From IMG/VR virus record IMGVR_UViG_3300025997_000012, positions 1 to 58,639 of that record: a stretch of 58,639 nt of DNA; one strand, 5' to 3'. The translations under genes were made by a program, and so were the position numbers. The notes under the pieces were generated by a model. The model saw only the letters and a list, made by a program, of their open reading frames with translations. It made no database searches and was not told the DNA's origin. Shown here piece after piece: positions 3,712 through 24,899 of this stretch; the first letter of the stretch is position 1, and each line of letters opens with the position of its first letter. This DNA comes from a virus. Lineage: Duplodnaviria; Caudoviricetes.

Positions 3712-3830
3712 ATCATCAACTGAAATTAAAATTTGAACATGGCGCAAGTGTTGGTTCAATTATACCAAGAATCAATTTTTTCAAAGTCCTGCTCAAATAG
3801 TTAAATTTATTTATAAAAAGTGAAATAAAT

Positions 3831-3889
3831 GAAAATAATTGTTTACATATTATGGTTTTATAGTTATAATAAATTTAATAAAGAAAAGG
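3831..3889 (+). promoter_or_regulatory. Early promoter cassette
   Basis: TTTACA 3842-3847, 17 bp, TATAAT 3865-3870. Confidence 0.85.
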
Positions 3890-3897
3890 TATAAGAA

Positions 3898-4275
3898 ATG
3901 ACTGAATTAGTAGATGTTAAGATTACATTGGGTGCTAATAAGATTAATGGTGATTTACGAGAATTTGTTGCGAGAGCATTTAAAGAGTCTATTGTTAAAG
4001 AAGCTGAAGTTAATAAAAATCTACAACAAGAAGTATTTCAAAAATTAATCGACTTTATGGAAAGTAGTGTTAAAAGTACAACACCTAAAGATAAACATAC
4101 TATTAACACAGAATTATTAGATTATTTCGCTGGTCAATTATCAGGTTCAATTACACACGAGAAAGGCTTAGAAAGACCAGCACTATTAATATATGACGAC
4201 CATACAGATACAGCTTATGTATATGCTGATGCAATGTTAACACCTAGAAAGAAGTACGTTGATAACGCAGTATAA
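3898..4275 (+). CDS. Hypothetical phage protein
   Basis: ORF behind promoter; DYFAGQ...AYVYADAML motif is of a kind seen in small phage proteins. Confidence 0.6.
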   Translation: MTELVDVKITLGANKINGDLREFVARAFKESIVKEAEVNKNLQQEVFQKLIDFMESSVKSTTPKDKHTINTELLDYFAGQLSGSITHEKGLERPALLIYDDHTDTAYVYADAMLTPRKKYVDNAV

Positions 4276-16672: not shown

Positions 16673-16863
16673 TAATAACGTGTTTAATAATAGAATTTAT
16701 GTGTTATTTATGTTTCAATAAAAATAATAATTTGAATTGATAATAACGTGTTTAATAATAGAATTTATGTGTTATTTATGTTTCAATAAAAATAATAATT
16801 TGAATTGATAATAACGTGTTTAATAATAGAATTTATGTGTTATTTATGTTTTTCTGAAAATAA
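16673..16863. repeat. 68-bp tandem repeat, two full copies plus a partial third
   Basis: TAATAACGTGTTTAATAATAGAATTTATGTGTTATTTATGTTT... starts at 16673, 16741, 16809. Confidence 0.95.
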
Positions 16864-16935
16864 TATGATGGAAAGAATAGAAATATTATGTTTTTTTAGA
16901 TTTTAAATAGAATAAAAGCCTCTGCGAGGCCTTAA

Positions 16936-19194
16936 TTAGAATACCATTTTTTGTATTTGAGTTATATTTCTTGAAGGATGTAAACCTTGATCTTTAGAAA
17001 TAATAGTATCAGCTTCTTCTGGTGTAAGAACAAATTGATCTTTATTAATACATTTTTTTAAGCATTTATTCATCGATAATAAACTTTTATTATTTTTGAT
17101 TTCTTCTAATACTTCATTAATAGTACCGGATGCTAATAATGATTTACTTGTTAAAGTTTTATTCATAACGACAGCTTCCATTTTATTGAAATTGATATAG
17201 AATCCTAATTGACTTCTAGAATCTTTATTTTCGATTTTAACAGCGTAATCAACTGTAGACAAATCAACAGACACTTTATGTGAATTAGTTCTAGTCATTT
17301 TGTTTTTAGCATCAATAACTTCAATAAAGAAGTATGTATCTAGTTTATCCATTGATGCTCCACTGAATGAAACAACATGGTTATACACTAAATCATAATC
17401 TTGTACTTTACTTAAATCGATGTCAATACATTCTGTACTAAATGCATCACTTCTACAGTATGTAATATCACCTGACGAAACACCTACATTATGGATGTGA
17501 GGAGATCGCCAGCTTAATTCATCAAAAGAACCACTGTAATCGTCATAGCCTTTTTTATGAAACATTGATGATAAATCTAAATCTGTGCTAATTGAACCTT
17601 TCCACATAATACCAGTTCTGATAATTTTAGATTCATCTAATTTGATTTTGGCACCTGAATACAAAATTTCACCAGATAAAGAAATTGATTGGTTACTTCT
17701 ATCTGAAAACGGAATAACAACATTTTTAGTGTCAGGAGAAACATATACTTTACCTAATTGTACATTTTCAGCACGTTTTTTAGACTTAATAGTATTACTG
17801 ATTAATGTTTTAACTTGTTTACATAATTTTTTGTTAAGACCTAAATAAGGTGCATTATATTCATATTTTACAACTTTACCTTGGACAGTTCTTTCAGTCG
17901 TTGAGATATAGTTATTTTTATCTTCAAGTTGGACAATTAATTCCCATAACAGTTTAGTATTGCAACTCATTAATAATCTTTTAAAGTCATCAGATGCTAA
18001 ATATTCACTTGCATCTTTAACAATATAACGATCAATTTTCAATATATTATTCATTGTATTCTTAACTAAACCAATCTTTACAGGAAATGTTGAACCTTCA
18101 GTCATTCGTAAGAATTCTAAAAGATTTCTCATTAAAAATCCTGGGCGTTCTGCAGCAACGTGAATCGCTTTATCATAATCACCCGATAATTTAGCTGTTT
18201 CATAACGTGAATTAAATGTCCATGATGTATTATTATTATACAACAATTCAATCATTTTAGCATAAGAGTTGTACTTAGTATTTCGTTTTGTTACAGGTTC
18301 CCACATTAAATAACGAACGATTCTTTTCCAGAATTGTCTATATTTAAGCATATCTTCAGCCGCATTTTGAACGTTCATTCCATTTAACACGTTTACTAAT
18401 AACTTACGCGCTGATTTAGGAATATATAATTTAATAGAACGTAAATCATTTTTATCGAACTTGCCTGTAATCTCAGGACTACTAAAATCTGACAAAACTA
18501 ACCGAACAATATCAGTTGGGTTTTTTAAGTATTTAGATGCAAGTAATGTGTCTGATTCTTTAATGCATCTTGAAATAACGATATTTTTTGTTTCATTAAA
18601 TGTAATATAAGCATCATTTGATACGAACTGTAGTACACCATAAGGAACACTGTTAATTAGTTCAATTTCGTGTTTATTTAATGAACGTGTTGATTCAAGA
18701 ATATTTTTAATTAATGCTTCGAATTCAAATGATGTATACAATGTAACTTCTTTTGGTTCTTTGTTCTTATTAATGTTAATAACATTTTTCAACTTGTTAC
18801 CAAAATAGTTCTTAACTACATCTTCAGGGGTTTCGCCGAAGTATGACTCAAATACATTACTCCATCCATAAGTTAATGAATATTGTGCATAAATAGCTTC
18901 AAAGTCTTTAGTAGTATATCCTTCGATACCTTCACTAGTTAAAAATTCAATACGGAAAATAGTACCAGTTTTTGTACTTGTATTTTGAACATTACACAAT
19001 GTAGTAAGCATATCCTTAGCAGTATCTTCAGTCATACTAACTAACGCTGATGCATTTTTAACAGTAATATTTATTTCAGATAATTGAGCAAAAACATTTA
19101 ATAATGCTTCTTTAGATATAGTAGCTTCAGATGGGTTTGCATCTTTGATTAAGATACCAGAGAACCCACCGAATAATAATTTATTTAATTTCAT
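16936..19194 (-). CDS. Large helical protein with C-terminal TerD-like domain (putative Ro/TROVE-like-TerD fusion)
   Basis: C-terminal W....DLDLS, SSGDIT, E.IDIDL, V.SFSG are TerD-like; N-terminal region has TDIVRL and ERPG.LMRNL. Confidence 0.6.
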   Translation of the reverse strand: MKLNKLLFGGFSGILIKDANPSEATISKEALLNVFAQLSEINITVKNASALVSMTEDTAKDMLTTLCNVQNTSTKTGTIFRIEFLTSEGIEGYTTKDFEAIYAQYSLTYGWSNVFESYFGETPEDVVKNYFGNKLKNVININKNKEPKEVTLYTSFEFEALIKNILESTRSLNKHEIELINSVPYGVLQFVSNDAYITFNETKNIVISRCIKESDTLLASKYLKNPTDIVRLVLSDFSSPEITGKFDKNDLRSIKLYIPKSARKLLVNVLNGMNVQNAAEDMLKYRQFWKRIVRYLMWEPVTKRNTKYNSYAKMIELLYNNNTSWTFNSRYETAKLSGDYDKAIHVAAERPGFLMRNLLEFLRMTEGSTFPVKIGLVKNTMNNILKIDRYIVKDASEYLASDDFKRLLMSCNTKLLWELIVQLEDKNNYISTTERTVQGKVVKYEYNAPYLGLNKKLCKQVKTLISNTIKSKKRAENVQLGKVYVSPDTKNVVIPFSDRSNQSISLSGEILYSGAKIKLDESKIIRTGIMWKGSISTDLDLSSMFHKKGYDDYSGSFDELSWRSPHIHNVGVSSGDITYCRSDAFSTECIDIDLSKVQDYDLVYNHVVSFSGASMDKLDTYFFIEVIDAKNKMTRTNSHKVSVDLSTVDYAVKIENKDSRSQLGFYINFNKMEAVVMNKTLTSKSLLASGTINEVLEEIKNNKSLLSMNKCLKKCINKDQFVLTPEEADTIISKDQGLHPSRNITQIQKMVF

Positions 19195-19218
19195 TTCATT
19201 TTCCTTCTATTAAAAGTG

Positions 19219-19466
19219 TTTTATTTTTAAAGAACTTTGAGTATGTACAACAGTCATTGATTAAATTAAAAGTTTAAGAGTAACCGTTAATTGGACCCAA
19301 AGTTCTTTAAAAATAAAATTTAGTATGTACAACAGTTATTGATTAAATTAAAAGTTTAAGAGTAACCGTTAATTGGACCAAATTTTATTTTAATATATAC
19401 TTAAGTTTGTGTGTCAGTTTTTAGTCATTAACTGATTTATAGAGTAAATAAACACGGAACATAAGT
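19219..19466 (-). ncRNA. Candidate array of structured RNA hairpin units upstream of the TerD-like gene
   Basis: 58-nt core repeated at 19240-19297 and 19322-19379 (1 mismatch), each closed by its own inverted repeat (21 bp and 12 bp); a diverged third unit at about 19399-19466. Confidence 0.55.
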
Positions 19467-19578
19467 TTTATTTATACTTAGATTTAATTATTTAATAGAA
19501 TTGTGCATCTGATTCAAAGTATCTAAACATAAGATTTACATTTTAATTAATGTTTAATTAATAATTAAATTAATCATT

Positions 19579-20040
19579 TTATTTTTCGTAATATTCAGGA
19601 ATTAAATCCAATCCTTTCATCAATGACTGTTTAACGAAAACATTAGGCTGTCTATAAGCACCTAAATCCTCGAAACCAATCATAGTACCAACTTCTACAA
19701 CTGCACCAGAACGGCATACACCAGCGATACAGTGTACAACTACATTCATTTTATTTGCTTTAGCATGTTGTAATAAGTTAACAATACTTGCACATTGTTC
19801 GGTATTCATTCTGAATTCCCACGCAATATCAATTTCATTGTCTACATCAGCGAAGGTAAATTGATGAATTTCTTTGAACTCATTATATGGCTTCATAGTA
19901 GATAAACAGCATGTACAATTTTCATATGGAATAGGAAACTCTATACAAGGATCAACAATCTGAATCAACATAGAATTCTTTCCTGGATTAGGAAAATTAC
20001 CATGTTTAATATCATAAAATGATACATTTGTTATCCACAT
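19579..20040 (-). CDS. Protein tyrosine/dual-specificity phosphatase-like protein
   Basis: VVVHCIAGVCRSGAV (HCxxGxxRS), F.D acid loop, PN motif. Confidence 0.85.
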   Translation of the reverse strand: MWITNVSFYDIKHGNFPNPGKNSMLIQIVDPCIEFPIPYENCTCCLSTMKPYNEFKEIHQFTFADVDNEIDIAWEFRMNTEQCASIVNLLQHAKANKMNVVVHCIAGVCRSGAVVEVGTMIGFEDLGAYRQPNVFVKQSLMKGLDLIPEYYEK

Positions 20041-20048
20041 TTTATTAA

Positions 20049-20112
20049 TCCTTTTGTTTATTTGTTAAATTTATTATAACTATTAAAACATAACATGTAA
20101 ATGGTTATTTTC
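20049..20112 (-). promoter_or_regulatory. Early promoter cassette
   Basis: Reverse complement gives TTTACA-spacer-TATAAT...AACAAATAAACAAAAGGA. Confidence 0.8.
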
Positions 20113-20412
20113 ATTTTTTAAACTTCATTTTTCAATGCTGAACAAATTCTTTCAAGCATTGTTTCACTAATATCAATAGCTGTGTATAATGGGCATTGAA
20201 TTTTATTAATTAATATTTTAGCTGCTTCATATATATTAATATCTTCTTGAAGAAGAATCAATTCATAATTATTATCATTAATTAATTTATTGTTTTCATT
20301 TGAATTAATGATTTTTTTTATTATATTCAAGTTGTTTATAATCACCATCTGCAATAGTAATTTTAAAACTACCAGAATAAACATTTAAAAAAATCTCCGG
20401 ATAAAAGGTTTT

Positions 20413-20601
20413 TTAAAGAAAACCCATTTTTTTGTATATAACCGGATTTCGTTTAATATCTTCTCTTACTTTTTCAATAATTTCATCACGAGCTTCTTTA
20501 ATTAATTCCTTACGCTCTTTGATAGATTTTTCTGATAAAATTAATGCTCTAATTGCTCTGACATGTTGTTTCAATTCATCAGATTGGAATGTATACTCCA
20601 T
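20413..20601 (-). CDS. Small coiled-coil protein
   Basis: ORF with AGGA RBS; weak resemblance to T4 DsbA-type proteins. Confidence 0.55.
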   Translation of the reverse strand: MEYTFQSDELKQHVRAIRALILSEKSIKERKELIKEARDEIIEKVREDIKRNPVIYKKMGFL

Positions 20602-20621
20602 ATTTAATCCTTTAATTTTTA

Positions 20622-21060
20622 TTTAAAAGCTATATATCCAGAAGATTTAATAAATTCTTCATCTGGAACTACTCATTCAATACGTTCTTGTTCAATATGT
20701 GCACAAGTTATACAAGACTTTAATTAAGCTTTCATTACCAAACATAATATAACCAAAATCATTAGCAATTGAAAGGTCATATTTTTGAATTGTACCCAAG
20801 ATTGTTTCTTCCATTAAAAATTTAGTTGGGGTCAAATCGCAATTAGGAGTTAACAAATATAATTCATATGGTTCACCATTATCATATATATTTGAACTGT
20901 ATACATTTTTAACTGTGAATGTACCATTAACGGCAAATTCTCGAGCTTCTTTAGTATCGAAATAAGTGTTTTACAATTGTTTTGTAGTAGTACCAAAGTC
21001 TTTAGCAAATTCATCCCAATTTATTTTAACAATATCATTAACTTTAAATAAATCTTTCAT
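20622..21060 (-). pseudogene. Disrupted early gene
   Basis: MKDLFKVNDIVKINWDEF...KQL*NTYFDTKEAREF...: in-frame TAA at 20971-20973 and later lesions. Confidence 0.55.
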
Positions 21061-21135: not shown

Positions 21136-21450
21136 ACAATTTTCCATTTATTTCATTAAGAATATCATTAACATTAACCATATAATTCTTTAAATTCTGT
21201 TAGTATACGTTGTTTTTCTTCGTGTAAATCATAGCTCACAAGAGAGTTTATCTAAAGTGTAGATATATTATTACGCAATAATTGTAATGTATTTTTCATG
21301 TCTAATGTTTCTTTTGATAGATTATCATTTTTATATTTAAAAATTTGACTTTGAATATGACTCTTATAATTATTATAAGATGTAATTACTTCTAATAATG
21401 CACTATTAATTCTGTCCTTTCTTATAAGTGATTTGATTAATACATTTGCA

Positions 21451-21667: not shown

Positions 21668-21741
21668 TGTACCCAGCGCAGGACTCGAACCCGCTGTCAT
21701 GACTTCGTAAACCCTTGGTTTATCCATTAACCGAACTGGTT
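21668..21741 (-). tRNA. Degenerate tRNA-Arg(ACG)-like
   Basis: Good T arm GCGGG-TTCGAGT-CCTGC and D arm; poorly paired anticodon stem; no CCA. Confidence 0.45.
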
Positions 21742-22288
21742 AATTATATTTTTATTGTAACATTAAAATTATGTTTTTATGATCAAAACTGTGTTGATTA
21801 TCCAATAATTTTCATCTCTTCTACTAATTACATCTATAATGTCATCTGTTTTTACATTGATTCTAAATGGTCTAATTTTTTTCATCTAAATCACGATAAT
21901 ACAAAAATTCACATAAATGATATTTACTCAACGAAATTATTGATTTTTGTTAATCAATAATATATAAATGTCTATTTTTAATTTTTTCTAAAATATGTTT
22001 TGCCTTTATTGTAACTCCTACCAAATTAAAGTAAATTTTTATTAAAAATATGATTAAATTTGTTCAAAATATCTGTTTCGGCCATAACAAATATCATAAA
22101 ATTGTTTACTATGATATATTATACTAAAAATTAAAACAAATGTAAATACTAATTTAACAGTATTTTTCTTCTTATTCGTTTACTGACATACAATCAAACA
22201 CATGTAATAAGTAACACTTTGGTTATATGATGTCTAATGTATAGTACACACAACTATTATTACATGACGTGAACGTACTTTTGAGAAT

Positions 22289-22363
22289 TGGTGCCTCGTG
22301 TTGGAGTCGAACCAACGACCTGTCGATTATGAGTCGATTGCTCTACCGTTAAGCTAACAAGGC
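22289..22363 (-). tRNA. tRNA-CAT, Ile2 (lysidine)-like
   Basis: GCCTTGT/ACGAGGC acceptor, TCGA-CTCATAA-TCGA, CCA end; resembles bacterial Ile2. Confidence 0.85.
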
Positions 22364-22364
22364 G

Positions 22365-22438
22365 TGGACCTGGCATCCGGAATCGAACTGGAATCTAAGG
22401 ATTTGCAATCCATTATACTACCGTTATACTATACCAGT
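22365..22438 (-). tRNA. tRNA-Cys(GCA)
   Basis: Loop TT-GCA-AA, U discriminator, CCA. Confidence 0.8.
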
Positions 22439-22450
22439 TTAAAATATTTT

Positions 22451-22506
22451 CCTTATTTATTAAATCTTTTATAACAATAAAACATAATATGTAAAGAATT
22501 ATTTTT
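22451..22506 (-). promoter_or_regulatory. Early promoter cassette driving tRNAs
   Basis: Reverse complement TTTACATATTATGTTTTATTGTTATAAA. Confidence 0.7.
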
Positions 22507-22525
22507 ATTATTTACATTTAAAAAT

Positions 22526-22608
22526 TGGTACTAGTATATGAACTCGAACTATCAATACCAAAGCGAGGGATTCTAAGTCCCTCGTGTATACCATTCCACC
22601 ACACTAGT
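22526..22608 (-). tRNA. tRNA-Leu(TAG), weak T stem
   Basis: ACTAGTG/TACTAGT acceptor, AGGGA-CTTAGAA-TCCCT, long variable region, CCA. Confidence 0.7.
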
Positions 22609-22620
22609 ATTATAATTAAG

Positions 22621-23040
22621 AGGGAGTTTGTTAATAAGGCATATCTCCCAACTTGAACTAAATCAGCCTCAACAGACTACGCTACTAAACGAGTCTGTGC
22701 AAAAGTATTATCATTTGCGTTTATCTTTAAAATGTATCTTATTTTACGTGCTTCAATCTTTACACGACTCTCAGGTGCACCGTACATTACCCTGTCGAAA
22801 CCAGTACATCCCCATCAAGAGCACACTTATGTGTAAAAATTATACAAACAGTTCACATAATAAATTAATAACTACTCCTGCTCCACATGTATTGGCTAGA
22901 TACAACATGTTTCCAAACTTATGAGGTCTGTTGTAGTCACTATCTGTTGTATATAATTACCCTATAATGTTATAAATGTGCTTTTGGTGGAGATGGGGAG
23001 AGTCGAACACCCGTCCAGACCAACTTTATACACCATCAAC
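22621..23040 (-). ncRNA. ssrA: Circularly permuted (two-piece) tmRNA; tag ANDNTFAQTRLVA*
   Basis: Acceptor piece ...GGACGGGTGTTCGACTCTCCCCATCTCCACCA (CCA at 22987-22985) precedes coding piece GGGGATGTACTGGTTTCGACAGGG (from 22813); G3-U70 pair; tag frame 22718-22677. Confidence 0.9.
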
Positions 23041-23755
23041 GAATTTTATAATTCTTTTAATATTGTTTAACATCTTTTGGCAAATAAGTTAAAATATTCA
23101 TCACTGAAATAACATAGAGATATAGTAATGTTGTCATAAAATATTCTGCATTAAATAACCCATATATTGCATAATATGGTCCAAGTAAAAATACCATATG
23201 TAACTATTACCGATGGCATTAATACTAACCAACATTTTAGGATTAAAAAACAATAGCTATTGTTTTACATGTAAGCCGTTAGTAATATAAAAAATATTAA
23301 TGTTATTAACATGTATTCAAATGCTGATTCAGTGATAATAACATAAATCAACTTTAATGTTTTTGGTTTCATTAATAAGTCTTTAAGTTCATTGATTCGT
23401 CTTTCACAATTATTAATTTATTCAGTGCTTCCTTTGTTAATATAATCATAAACTTTTTCTTCAGTGATTGATTTATATTCAACATTAGTGATTGTTTCTA
23501 CATGATAAACTTTATCATAGTGGTCTTATTTAGCTCCTAGATTTTCACTTTTAATATCTACAATAAAGTACTTATTATCAACTTTAACAAATGCACTTCA
23601 TCCATCACTATAATAGTCTTGACAGCAAGGTAAATATTAATCACTAACCTCTTTAAAATATGGTACAATATCTGATATAGTTTTTAATTCTACAATTTTA
23701 CTCATTTTATATTACTATTTAATTTACATTAATTTCAACAATTTATTCATTAAAT

Positions 23756-23831
23756 GAGGTAACCGAATGGATTTGAACCAAGTCTTGAGTGATTTTAGGT
23801 CACTTACCTCTACCAATTAGGTAAGATGGCA
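23756..23831 (-). pseudogene. Degenerate tRNA-like sequence (loop CCTAAAA)
   Basis: D arm, AGTGA/TCACT anticodon stem and GGTTCAAATCC present; acceptor stem unpaired. Confidence 0.5.
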
Positions 23832-23870
23832 TTATTTTTAAATATTCTTTTTAAAAACACTTAAAACTAA

Positions 23871-23944
23871 TGGTGGGTTGTAAGGGAATCGAACCCTTAT
23901 AGACCGGTTAAAAGCCGGATATTCTACCGTTGAATTAACAACCC
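23871..23944 (-). tRNA. tRNA-Lys(TTT)
   Basis: GGGTTGT/ACAACCC, CT-TTT-AA loop, CCA. Confidence 0.9.
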
Positions 23945-23951
23945 GAAAGTT

Positions 23952-24028
23952 TGGTGGATCGCTTGGGAGTCGAACCCAAAACCTACGGGTTAAAAGCCCG
24001 GTGCTCTATCCAATTGAGCTAGCATTCC
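23952..24028 (-). tRNA. tRNA-Lys(TTT)
   Basis: CGGG-CTTTTAA-CCCG, GGTTCGACTCC, CCA. Confidence 0.85.
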
Positions 24029-24085
24029 ATATATTAAATTGTGGGGATTTTTTACCAGCAAACATCTTTCGTTTCATTTATATTT

Positions 24086-24150
24086 CCTTTTTTGTTTATT
24101 TGTTAAATTTATTATAACTAATAAAACATAATATGTAAACAATTATTTTC
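24086..24150 (-). promoter_or_regulatory. Early promoter cassette inside tRNA cluster
   Basis: Reverse complement GAAAATAATTGTTTACATATTATGTTTTATTAGTTATAATAAATTTAACAAATAAACAAAAAAGG. Confidence 0.85.
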
Positions 24151-24197
24151 ACAATTTTTCATTTTTAAATATTCTTTTTCATAAAAACACTTAAAAA

Positions 24198-24272
24198 TGG
24201 TAGTTCTGTCAAGAATCGAACTTGAATTTCACGATTATCAGTCGCGGGTAATAACCATTATACTACAGAACT
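24198..24272 (-). tRNA. tRNA-Ile(GAT)
   Basis: AGTTCTG/CAGAACT, CGCGA-CTGATAA-TCGTG, CCA. Confidence 0.9.
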
Positions 24273-24274
24273 AT

Positions 24275-24349
24275 TGGTGTCAACGGTTGGTAACGATCCA
24301 ACCTATCTGGTTCTTCAGACCCGTGCTAATTCATCTCAGCTACATTGAC
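24275..24349 (-). tRNA. tRNA-Phe(GAA), atypical T loop
   Basis: GTCAATG/CGTTGAC, CT-GAA-GA loop, T loop ATCGTTA, CCA. Confidence 0.8.
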
Positions 24350-24351
24350 AT

Positions 24352-24429
24352 TGGAGTGGGTTTAGGGGATTCGAACCTACGAATAACGGATTCAAAGTCC
24401 GCTGCGTTAAACCACTTCGCCACATCCCA
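24352..24429 (-). tRNA. tRNA-Gln(TTG), aberrant 3' arm
   Basis: Identical to the next copy through the T loop; 3' strand CCCCTAAACCCACTCCA pairs poorly. Confidence 0.6.
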
Positions 24430-24435
24430 TTATTT

Positions 24436-24512
24436 TGGCTGGGACGGAAGGATTCGAACCTACGAATAACGGATTCAAAGTCCGCTGCGTTAAACCACTT
24501 CGCCACATCCCA
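24436..24512 (-). tRNA. tRNA-Gln(TTG)
   Basis: TGGGATG/CGTCCCA, GCGGA-CTTTGAA-TCCGT, GCCA end. Confidence 0.9.
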
Positions 24513-24518
24513 TTAATT

Positions 24519-24593
24519 TGGTAGCGGTGGAGGGACTCGAACCCTCGTCCATTAGGTTATGAGCCTAATAGTCTGCCGCTGACGTACACCGCG
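24519..24593 (-). tRNA. tRNA-Met(CAT), initiator-like
   Basis: CGCGGTG/CACCGCT with unpaired C1-U72, TTAGG-CTCATAA-CCTAA, CCA. Confidence 0.85.
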
Positions 24594-24600
24594 TTAATTT

Positions 24601-24676
24601 TGGTGCCGAAAGTAGGACTTGAACCTACAACCTACTGATTACAAATCAGTTGCACTACCAGTTGTGCTATTTCGGC
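24601..24676 (-). tRNA. tRNA-Thr(TGT)
   Basis: GCCGAAA/TTTCGGC, ACTGA-TTTGTAA-TCAGT, CCA. Confidence 0.95.
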
Positions 24677-24746
24677 TTAAACAATTATTAAATTTACTAT
24701 ATTTAAAAATACTATTTAATGTTATTTTAATACTCTTAAATATAGT

Positions 24747-24814
24747 TGGCCAGAATGATAGGATTTGAACCTGCACCTTCCAAGGCGAGAGAACTACCAT
24801 TATCTTACATTCCG
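24747..24814 (-). pseudogene. tRNA-Pro(TGG) pseudogene with deletion in anticodon arm
   Basis: CGGAATG/CATTCTG acceptor and T arm intact; 3' strand of anticodon stem missing. Confidence 0.6.
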
Positions 24815-24825
24815 ATTATCAGTGT

Positions 24826-24899
24826 TGGTCTCTCTGGAAAGAATTGGACTTTCATTTTACGGTCCCAAACCGTATGCATTACCATTATACTACAGAGAG
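24826..24899 (-). tRNA. tRNA-Pro(TGG)
   Basis: CTCTCTG/CAGAGAG, TACGG-TTTGGGA-CCGTA, CCA; T loop TCCAATT is atypical. Confidence 0.8.

Follow-up and report, generated by a model that had tools for sequence, protein, structure and literature searches.

The 58,639-nucleotide (nt) stretch of DNA analyzed here, referred to as the window, is an IMG/VR virus record (IMGVR_UViG_3300025997_000012) that is estimated to be 29% complete. On its minus strand, just upstream of the gene for a protein of 752 amino acids (aa) that we call P0001, lies an array of hairpins with two complete units, B and C, and a decayed third copy, A. We consider it likely that these units are small structured RNA genes of a conserved family, in which a common handle carries a tip, and that they partner the 752-aa protein on the plan of Ro60 and its Y RNAs. 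Because the same pairing of RNA and protein recurs in distant phages, the pair is probably a divergent phage Ro60/Y-RNA-like particle, i.e., a cousin of Ro60/Y-RNA. An earlier reading of the sequence alone had proposed Y-RNA-like partners of the adjacent TerD-like protein, and this proposal is supported by arrays beside homologous genes, covariation, YrlA-like modules and the apparently Ro60-like fold of the modelled protein.

Ro60/Y RNA is a conserved, poorly understood RNA-surveillance particle, and its human version is a major autoantigen. Our finding points to a second widespread phage lineage that would have TerD in place of vWA, another RNA motif, multi-unit arrays and tips that copy different parts of tRNAs. 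If this is true, the design of a handle plus a displayed module would be a general, evolvable platform, and it would be tied directly to the contest between phages and bacteria over tRNA. Members of the family occur in cultured phages, so these ideas can be tested at the bench.

Structure of the hairpin units

The array occupies a 384-nt gap between a phosphatase-like gene (19579-20040, minus strand) and the gene for the 752-aa protein (Table 1). The gap contains a direct tandem repeat of 82 nt (19221-19302 and 19303-19384) with 87% identity. As the sequence-only reading had claimed, a 58-nt core is present twice with a single difference. The core copies are 19240-19297 and 19322-19379, which is the longest stretch with at most one mismatch at an offset of 82, and they differ only in having C at 19255 and T at 19337. 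The folds confirm that this change turns a U-G into a U-A, so that pairing is kept. The perfect closing repeats of 21 and 12 base pairs (bp) described earlier turn out to lie inside longer inverted repeats: one of 24 nt (96%) in unit C (19219-19242 and 19295-19318) and one of 15 nt, including one G-U, in unit B (19310-19324 and 19377-19391). The 3' arm of unit B overlaps the 5' arm of unit C at 19310-19318.

When the minus strand of 19195-19480 is folded, two long hairpins form with a z-score of -4.74, and none of 200 dinucleotide shuffles is as stable. Each unit consists of a closing stem, a 5-nt/5-nt internal loop, a 9-bp stem (stem 2) and a tip hairpin with 5 bp and a 7-nt loop. The anticipated pairing of AACGGUUA with UGACUGUU in the core holds, and the stem extends beyond it to the full 9 bp (UAACGGUUA with UGACUGUUG). 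A preference for the gene's strand had been deduced from G-U wobbles, of which the minus strand has 4 in unit C and 3 in unit B. In agreement with this, the minus strand folds more stably than the plus strand in both units (-33.6 versus -26.0 kcal/mol in unit C, and -18.2 versus -14.4 kcal/mol in unit B). The handle motifs GGGUCCA and GUUACU of unit C are also present in unit B, displaced by 82 nt in the upstream direction. A spacer of 24 nt separates the last unit from the ATG of the 752-aa gene, which is on the same strand.

A separate observation concerns positions 19615-19631, at the 3' end of the phosphatase-like gene, which are 94% complementary to 19249-19265 (E 0.085). The latter segment is the 3' strand of stem 2 plus the tip flank of unit C. 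From the sequences, this could be an alternative long-range pairing on minus-strand RNA, or chance.

Table 1. Positions of the array, its parts and the adjacent gene in the window
Feature	Position	Strand	Remarks
752-aa protein gene	16936..19194	-	N-terminal domain; predicted Ro60-like helical domain, residues ~145-517; TerD-fold domain, ~518-700
Unit C	19219..19318	-	Nearest the gene; complete hairpin; 23-bp closing stem; covariance-model core 19233-19304
Unit C handle motifs	GGGUCCA 19298-19292; GUUACU 19285-19280	-	Top of closing stem; top of stem 2
Unit C tip	19261..19277	-	5-bp stem UUAAA/UUUAA; 7-nt loop CUUUUAA
Unit B	19310..19391	-	Complete hairpin; 15-bp closing stem; covariance-model core 19315-19386
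Unit B tip	19343..19359	-	5-bp stem and CUUUUAA loop identical to those of unit C
Unit A	19397..19468	-	Degenerate third copy, in phase with 82-nt spacing
TATAAATA	19469..19476	-	Candidate promoter element directly upstream of unit A
Terminator-like hairpin	16915..16933	-	Directly 3' of the 752-aa gene

A conserved RNA family upstream of homologous genes

Our search for related loci returned 20 loci. One of these comes from the same phage as the window, and two (L008 and L010) duplicate others (L005 and L004, respectively), which leaves 17 distinct foreign loci. In 12 of the 17, the homologous gene is preceded by 400-930 nt without a long open reading frame (ORF). The gaps in related loci hold repeated units that share one architecture: a long closing stem, whose sequence is specific to each unit, ends in RGU on its 5' side and ACU on its 3' side, and is followed by the 5' loop CMU, a stem of 7-9 bp, RKUACU, a variable tip and the 3' loop YAY. 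In alignments of units from 8-9 loci, the consensus of the family is RGUCMU, and U, C and UACU are invariant columns. These handle motifs are kept among phages whose proteins share only 28-35% identity.

We used two covariance models. The first, R1, was built from 15 short units of 8 other loci and contains zero window sequence; the second, R2, was run over 104 kb. On both strands of the window, R1 matches unit B with 29.1 bits (E 2.9e-6) and unit C with 23.2 bits (E 2e-4), after which the next match has an E-value of 0.81. Over the window and the 17 loci (18 sources, 163 kb), the model gives 42 matches at E <= 1, of which 27 are outside the training set. Of the 42 matches, all except one (L005:126-179, on the other strand) are upstream of the homologous gene and on its strand. 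Among the 10 sources that contributed no training sequence, six match at E <= 0.01 (the window, L001, L011, L014, L017 and L020) and seven at E <= 1, with L002 matched at E 0.06; L009, L018 and L019 have no R1 match, and L009 offers just 248 nt upstream of its gene. The model appears to be specific, because it finds no match in 607 kb of bacterial DNA, from 80 loci with genes for distant relatives of the protein. Both models miss the diverged units of Rhodobacter phage RcXuper and other cultured phages.

The third, diverged unit that the sequence-only reading had perceived also exists, in weak form. In unit A, GUUCC replaces GGUCC, UUUACUCU is kept, the closing stem has 8 positions with one mismatch, the tip hairpin is different, and the fold energy is -9.0 kcal/mol. 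It is not detected by R1 at E <= 10, and with R2 it scores 16.2 bits (E 1.2), the third best match in the 104 kb.

The alignment of the 42 units is consistent with a conserved secondary structure. In this alignment, 81.5% of cells pair, compared to 55% in shuffled alignments. The covariation score is 0.649, versus 0.200 for shuffled alignments (0 of 500 reach the observed score) and 0.06-0.24 when partners are slid. Pairing in the closing helix reaches 93% across the units, and 9 of its 10 pairs show compensatory changes. It had been suggested that similar hairpins upstream of homologs, together with covariation, would be the appropriate check on the array, and both were found.

The related arrays have up to 6 units and extend as far as 1-2 kb from the gene; those of L014 and L020 are separated from it by other ORFs. 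The association appears to be specific to the RNA-protein pair, because the three genes that neighbor the window array, including the phosphatase-like gene, have no tblastn match in 23 related loci.

Resemblance to Y RNAs

Phage pairs of Ro60 and Y RNA of the TROVE plus vWA kind have been published (PMC4201824; PMC12135203). The known RNAs of bacteria and phages include YrlA and YrlB (PMC4201824) and, in Thermus phage phiLo, Yrl1 and Yrl2 (PDB 9L5Y; PMC12135203), and ROT/TROVE is mentioned for jumbo phages in PMC7824862. Chen et al. 2014 (PMC4201824) describe the canonical YrlA RNAs of bacteria and phages as adjoining TROVE genes and as carrying the motif GNCGAAN0-1G, which they liken to the motif GGUCCGA that is contacted by Xenopus Ro60.

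The RNAs of the window resemble these systems in several respects. They are encoded beside the protein gene on the same strand, and, as in YrlA and Y RNAs, base pairing between their 5' and 3' termini gives a long stem, in which a conserved motif is located at an internal loop. The GGGUCCA of the handle shares GGUCC with the animal motif GGUCCGA as quoted in that paper. A resemblance of GGUCC to the Ro-binding helix had been noticed from the sequence, and it fits both the animal motif and the family consensus RGUCMU.

A further resemblance to YrlA lies in the distal module. In several related arrays, some units have as their tip a permuted tRNA-like module with a T arm, a stem-loop and a D arm (L004, L005, L007, L012, L013, L015, L016 and L020). 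The Rfam YrlA model matches inside such related units in L005 (E 3e-8), L015 (E 4e-6), L013 (E 5e-6) and L012 (E 2e-3); the YrlA scores in related loci are 31.5-48.3 bits, all under the gathering score of 69. In L020, a region that R1 matches at E 0.11 (L020:161-297) encloses a whole tRNA-Ile (GAU) called by ARAGORN, and another R1 match (L020:467-602) contains a T-arm/D-arm module for which ARAGORN makes no call. In L016, at about 3779-3900, handle-like flanks surround a further tRNA, which has the anticodon AUA and is called Tyr by ARAGORN. Because whole tRNA genes sit in handle-like flanks in L020 and L016, handle units may give rise, at their tips, to some genuine or nearly genuine tRNAs. 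A handle that carries such varied tRNA-derived modules thus behaves as a scaffold, which matches the logic of Y RNAs.

There are also clear differences. The handle motif is RGUCMU ... RKUACU and not the GNCGAA of YrlA, and units of the family either stay under the Rfam threshold for YrlA or have no match to it. Canonical systems have 1-2 RNAs, whereas these arrays have 2-6 units. Moreover, the tips in the window imitate an anticodon arm, in contrast to the T/D/acceptor core that YrlA imitates.

Predicted fold of the 752-aa protein

Sequence searches give little information about P0001. It is blank in searches of Pfam, PHROGs and PDB sequences, with no Pfam TerD match at E <= 0.01, and it has no match to vWA_Ro60 of Pfam, which matches a Lysobacter Ro60 control at E 5.7e-17. 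An AlphaFold2 model, based on an alignment of 70 sequences, is confident, with a predicted local distance difference test (pLDDT) score of 93.2 and a predicted template modelling (pTM) score of 0.91. Residues 518-700 of the model have the TerD fold (2qz7_B, Z 13.7; 2kxt, Z 11.6), as in the calcium-binding beta-sandwich TerD of tellurite resistance (PF02342). Distant members of the family do match Pfam TerD, and the motifs D.D.S, SGDIT and E.IDID are conserved. The TerD of Ter operons is a stand-alone protein; by contrast, the domain here is one part of a 752-aa protein that gene linkage associates with RNA.

The helical domain appears to be similar to Ro60. In a comparison of the model with 48,161 chains, Ro60 of Xenopus (1yvp_A) aligns with Z 10.4 and a root-mean-square deviation of 4.1 over 314 residues, that of Thermus phage phiLo (9l5y_B) with Z 10.1 over 305, and that of Deinococcus (2nvo_A) with Z 9.6 over 307. 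These three Ro60 structures are the only helical matches above Z 6, the next being at Z 5.9. When residues 140-520 were folded alone (10 sequences, pLDDT 80), the same three structures were on top (Z 9.4, 9.0 and 6.8), again followed by a match at 5.9. Foldseek assigns human Ro60 a probability of 0.96 (E 0.02) and a phage TROVE protein a probability of 1.00 (E 2.7e-3). By these comparisons, P0001 is predicted to contain a helical-repeat ring of the Ro60 type. The models suggest a protein that is Ro60-like in fold, with TerD where vWA sits in Ro60 and an extra N-terminal domain of ~140 residues, and this likeness may reflect homology or convergence.

We also considered a short stretch (ERPGFLMRNL / GRMLRNF) that hhalign matched to a Ro60 alignment made of close Xanthomonadales sequences; at E 0.1 it is no evidence of homology, and we rejected it. 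Ro60 sequences of wider diversity might align better.

The protein is related to the NCBIfam family NF041916 (MXAN_6230/SCO0854 RING family), which matches P0001 with E 9.8e-21 and 73.6 bits, far below its cut-off of 600 bits. The homology covers the helical and TerD parts, and ESM Atlas places this family among the nearest clusters. The phage protein differs in having no RING finger. In the literature, we found no relevant paper on the function of the NF041916 family, and no paper on a TerD-bearing Ro60-like protein, on the handle motif or on Y-like RNAs that display anticodon loops.

Homologs in cultured phages and bacteria

P0001 has 14 homologs at E <= 1e-65, with 28-47% identity, and in a profile search the representatives number 1,560 at E <= 1e-3 and 127 at E <= 1e-30. 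A tblastn search of a phage collection with P0001 returned 3 weak records only, the DNA of positions 18000-21000 had no match at all in that collection, and a profile search of genome contigs with the close-family alignment (A1) found no relative. One relative, in the 17% G+C locus L018, is 34% identical over residues 29-670, and its frame is broken by stops under table 11; another genetic code or a broken gene may explain this sequence.

Family members are nevertheless present in the cultured phages RcXuper, RpAliso, Weasels2, XacN1 and LpeD, annotated as "hypothetical protein" or "cytoplasmic protein". In RcXuper, an unannotated gap of 1.9 kb (L111 563-2485) precedes the homolog, which is ~23% identical to P0077, a relative of the bacterial type that served as tblastn query. 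The gap contains an unannotated permuted tmRNA (106-108 bits), a YrlA match (E 7.6e-6) between the tmRNA and the homolog, and four GGCAUACUUCUA repeats, which have UACUU in common with the window handle. Ruegeria phage RpAliso likewise has an unannotated gap of 1.8-1.9 kb before its homolog (L112 653-2488). In both phages, a gene for a CCA-adding enzyme and tRNA-Tyr genes follow the homolog; the former is annotated as a tRNA nucleotidyltransferase in RpAliso and only as a nucleotidyl transferase in RcXuper.

Bacterial relatives, of ~700 aa, are common in Paenibacillus, Priestia and Lachnospiraceae, and one of them, P0077, matches NF041916 at E 1.4e-112. With alignment A7 we found at least 578 stretches, of which 80 were kept (L027-L106); these represent one subfamily, with 3-kb flanks. 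The single bacterial locus whose ORF layout was inspected, L095, has a relative that looks stand-alone. YrlA is absent at the gathering score in the 16 of the 80 loci that were scanned with Rfam, and TACTTC[TC]A is not enriched in the bacterial loci (15 on the gene strand versus 22 on the other strand). TROVE is present in one of five bacterial genomes that hold a relative; a search for TROVE in 201 genomes at E <= 1e-10, a threshold that is too strict, found none.

Tips and anticodon loops

Both tips in the window read UUAAA-CUUUUAA-UUUAA and thus have the 5 bp and the 7-nt loop that are typical of an anticodon arm. The phage has two tRNA-Lys(UUU) genes, and the anticodon loops of both have exactly the sequence of the tip loop. 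In seven of the 42 R1 matches, a stem of 4-5 bp at the tip closes a loop that reads CU-NNN-AA. The loop is CUUUUAA in both window units and in L003 and L004, CUUCUAA in L002, CUGAUAA in L012 and CUAUAAA in L014. The tip stem in L012 shows a compensatory change, with CAAU/AUUG instead of CAAA/UUUG. A CAAA-CUUUUAA-UUUG tip is also present in L001, identified by sequence pattern only and in a unit outside the 42.

Bacterial anticodon nucleases classically attack tRNA-Lys(UUU), so it is a reasonable conjecture that the CUUUUAA tips may serve as decoy or tether. Some phage-encoded tRNAs replace host tRNAs that are cut by anticodon nucleases. Like such replacement tRNAs, the window units are phage RNAs with the anticodon loop of tRNA-Lys(UUU) that are encoded near a tRNA array. 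However, neither ARAGORN nor Rfam (RF00005) calls a tRNA at 19219-19476, and the units cannot be charged. They could therefore act only as a decoy, sponge or tether.

Signals and transcripts around the array

The candidate promoter element TATAAATA is located just upstream of the array, where the earlier reading had placed it. This octamer is not enriched in the window (24 found versus 27 expected), and a scan for sigma-70 sites was no better than the shuffle level. Four metatranscriptome runs contain contigs that are 99-100% identical to the 752-aa gene and the upstream phosphatase gene. Three contigs from these RNA libraries that cover coding sequence reach into unit C, as far as 19250, 19270 and 19291, and positions 19292-19436 are spanned by no contig in the four runs. 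This gap is uninformative, because it is inside the tandem repeat, where short-read assemblies break. The contigs are compatible with co-transcription of the array and the gene.

Proposed mechanism and alternative explanations

We propose that the array is transcribed on the strand of the gene, possibly jointly with it, and that the transcript would be processed into separate RNAs. The Ro60-like helical domain would bind the conserved handle, i.e., the top of the closing stem (RGU/ACU), the CMU/YAY internal loop, stem 2 and RKUACU, and the variable tip would be displayed to another factor. In other phages, the tips are permuted tRNA-like modules of the YrlA type or whole tRNAs. In the window, where the anticodon loop of tRNA-Lys(UUU) is reproduced in both tips, the particle would therefore present a lysine-anticodon look-alike to an enzyme that acts on tRNA. 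It might, for instance, act as a decoy that occupies a host anticodon nuclease, or tether repair or modification enzymes. The most specific version of this idea is that a Ro60-shaped, TerD-bearing protein holds the small RNAs by their handles in a ribonucleoprotein decoy, whose two tRNA-Lys(UUU) loops absorb or misdirect host anticodon nucleases or tRNA-modifying enzymes. We offer this version tentatively and regard it as rather doubtful. If it were true, the swaps of tips between phages (Lys, Arg-like UCU, Ile-like GAU and whole tRNA mimics) would track the host defenses that these phages have met.

It is important to consider the observations that weigh against a Ro60/Y-RNA-like particle. 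With respect to the RNA, the window units match neither YrlA (RF02553) nor Y_RNA (RF00019) of Rfam within 19100-19700, even at E <= 10; the bacterial Rsr motif GNCGAAN0-1G is missing from them; and the window array has no tRNA-like module with T and D arms, only a 17-nt tip that is like an anticodon arm. The alignment of the 42 matches in which pairs were counted was fitted to the model and leans towards it, so the covariation figures are supportive, not decisive. In this alignment, only 65% of cells in stem 2 are paired, and part of the reason is that its register moves when the 3' loop changes in length. The heptamer CUUUUAA easily arises by chance in DNA of 28% G+C, although its retention at the same position of the unit in phages of 34-40% G+C is better evidence than the heptamer alone. 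With respect to the protein, a Z-score near 10 for helical repeats can reflect a shared arrangement alone. P0001 has no match to Pfam TROVE (PF05731), the family profile finds no Ro60 among PDB sequences, and hhalign aligns the family (alignment A2) with Ro60 (alignment A8) over just 25 columns (E 0.1, probability 0.6%). Finally, no handle RNA is present within 3 kb of the relative in the 80 bacterial loci, and the protein family can therefore exist without it.

The best surviving alternative is that the hairpins are cis-acting elements in the 5' untranslated region of the mRNA for the 752-aa protein, either autoregulatory protein sites or RNase III processing or stability elements, rather than free RNAs. 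No terminator-like site was found between the array and the gene, and the last unit is close to the ATG, so a role as leader is possible. The closing stems of 15-23 bp are long, perfect stems of the kind that RNase III cuts. In keeping with a leader, contigs from the RNA libraries continue out of the coding region into unit C, but these assemblies reveal neither the ends nor the strand of an RNA, and the libraries may contain DNA. Even genuine co-transcription cannot separate the two readings, because canonical Y RNAs are encoded beside rsr and are co-transcribed with it in Salmonella. On the other hand, it would be unusual for a leader that the same handle bears YrlA-like tRNA mimics and even whole tRNAs elsewhere. 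Arrays of up to 6 units also reach as far as 1-2 kb from the gene, with other ORFs intervening in L014 and L020. We therefore think it unlikely that the hairpins are solely a leader; autoregulation could also operate alongside the role as small-RNA partners.

It is also conceivable that the units are Y-like or tRNA-cluster RNAs with some other partner, such as a host Ro60, a tRNA-processing enzyme or the ribosome, and that they adjoin the gene only because both belong to a shared tRNA/tmRNA region. Genes for tRNA or tmRNA are indeed near the gene in the window, L002, L012, L016, L020, Weasels2, RcXuper and RpAliso, some R1 matches fall in the tRNA cluster of L020, 2.3 kb from the gene, and the genes for CCA-adding or nucleotidyl transferase enzymes in RpAliso and RcXuper fit the same pattern. 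A shared region does not readily explain why 41 of the 42 R1 matches are upstream of the gene and on its strand, why the 752-aa family is the sole gene conserved beside the arrays, or why the helical domain finds its best fold match in the only protein family that is known to bind RNAs of this type. It is unlikely that the partner is a canonical phage Ro60, since no TROVE gene is found in the window's record or in five related viral records, four of which are at least 90% complete. We consider this explanation quite improbable overall.

A functionless recent tandem duplication of AT-rich intergenic DNA, with chance hairpins, a repeat element or the terminator of the upstream gene, would account for a palindrome-rich region of 21% G+C and for copies so similar (one change in 58 nt) that they say little about selection within this phage, but it is highly improbable given that R1, free of window sequence, finds both copies and nothing else in the window, that the handle motifs persist in phages with proteins only 28-35% identical, and that the one change preserves a base pair.

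Genomic context

The window DNA has a G+C content of 28%. Between 13 and 14 tRNA genes are called across it by ARAGORN and Rfam, 12-13 of them in a cluster at 21669-24899 (minus strand) that includes two tRNA-Lys(UUU) genes and two copies of tRNA-Gln. A circularly permuted tmRNA (Rfam RF04321, 74 bits) is located at 22677-23044, also on the minus strand. The cluster and the tmRNA are thus on the strand of the array, 2-5 kb upstream of it, and an Rfam scan of the window at the gathering score finds the tRNAs and the permuted tmRNA and nothing further. No member of the CCA-adding enzyme, RtcB or RNA-ligase families was found in the window's record, of which 29% is estimated to be present.

The phosphatase-like gene upstream of the array encodes a protein of 153 aa with weak Pfam matches of the DSPc/PTP type (E 2e-5 to 7e-3). 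Among these, the Y_phosphatase match (24 bits) alone passes its curated cut-off, 20.9. Some enzymes with the dual-specificity or tyrosine-phosphatase fold act on RNA ends.

Just past the terminator-like hairpin of the 752-aa gene, at 16673-16865, is another tandem repeat, with 2.8 copies of 68 nt and 96% matches. The sequence of a second assembly of the window phage, L006, agrees fully with the window from position 21367 as far as 16673 and differs from there on, inside this repeat. Each of the 68-nt copies carries a sigma-70-like site on the plus strand.

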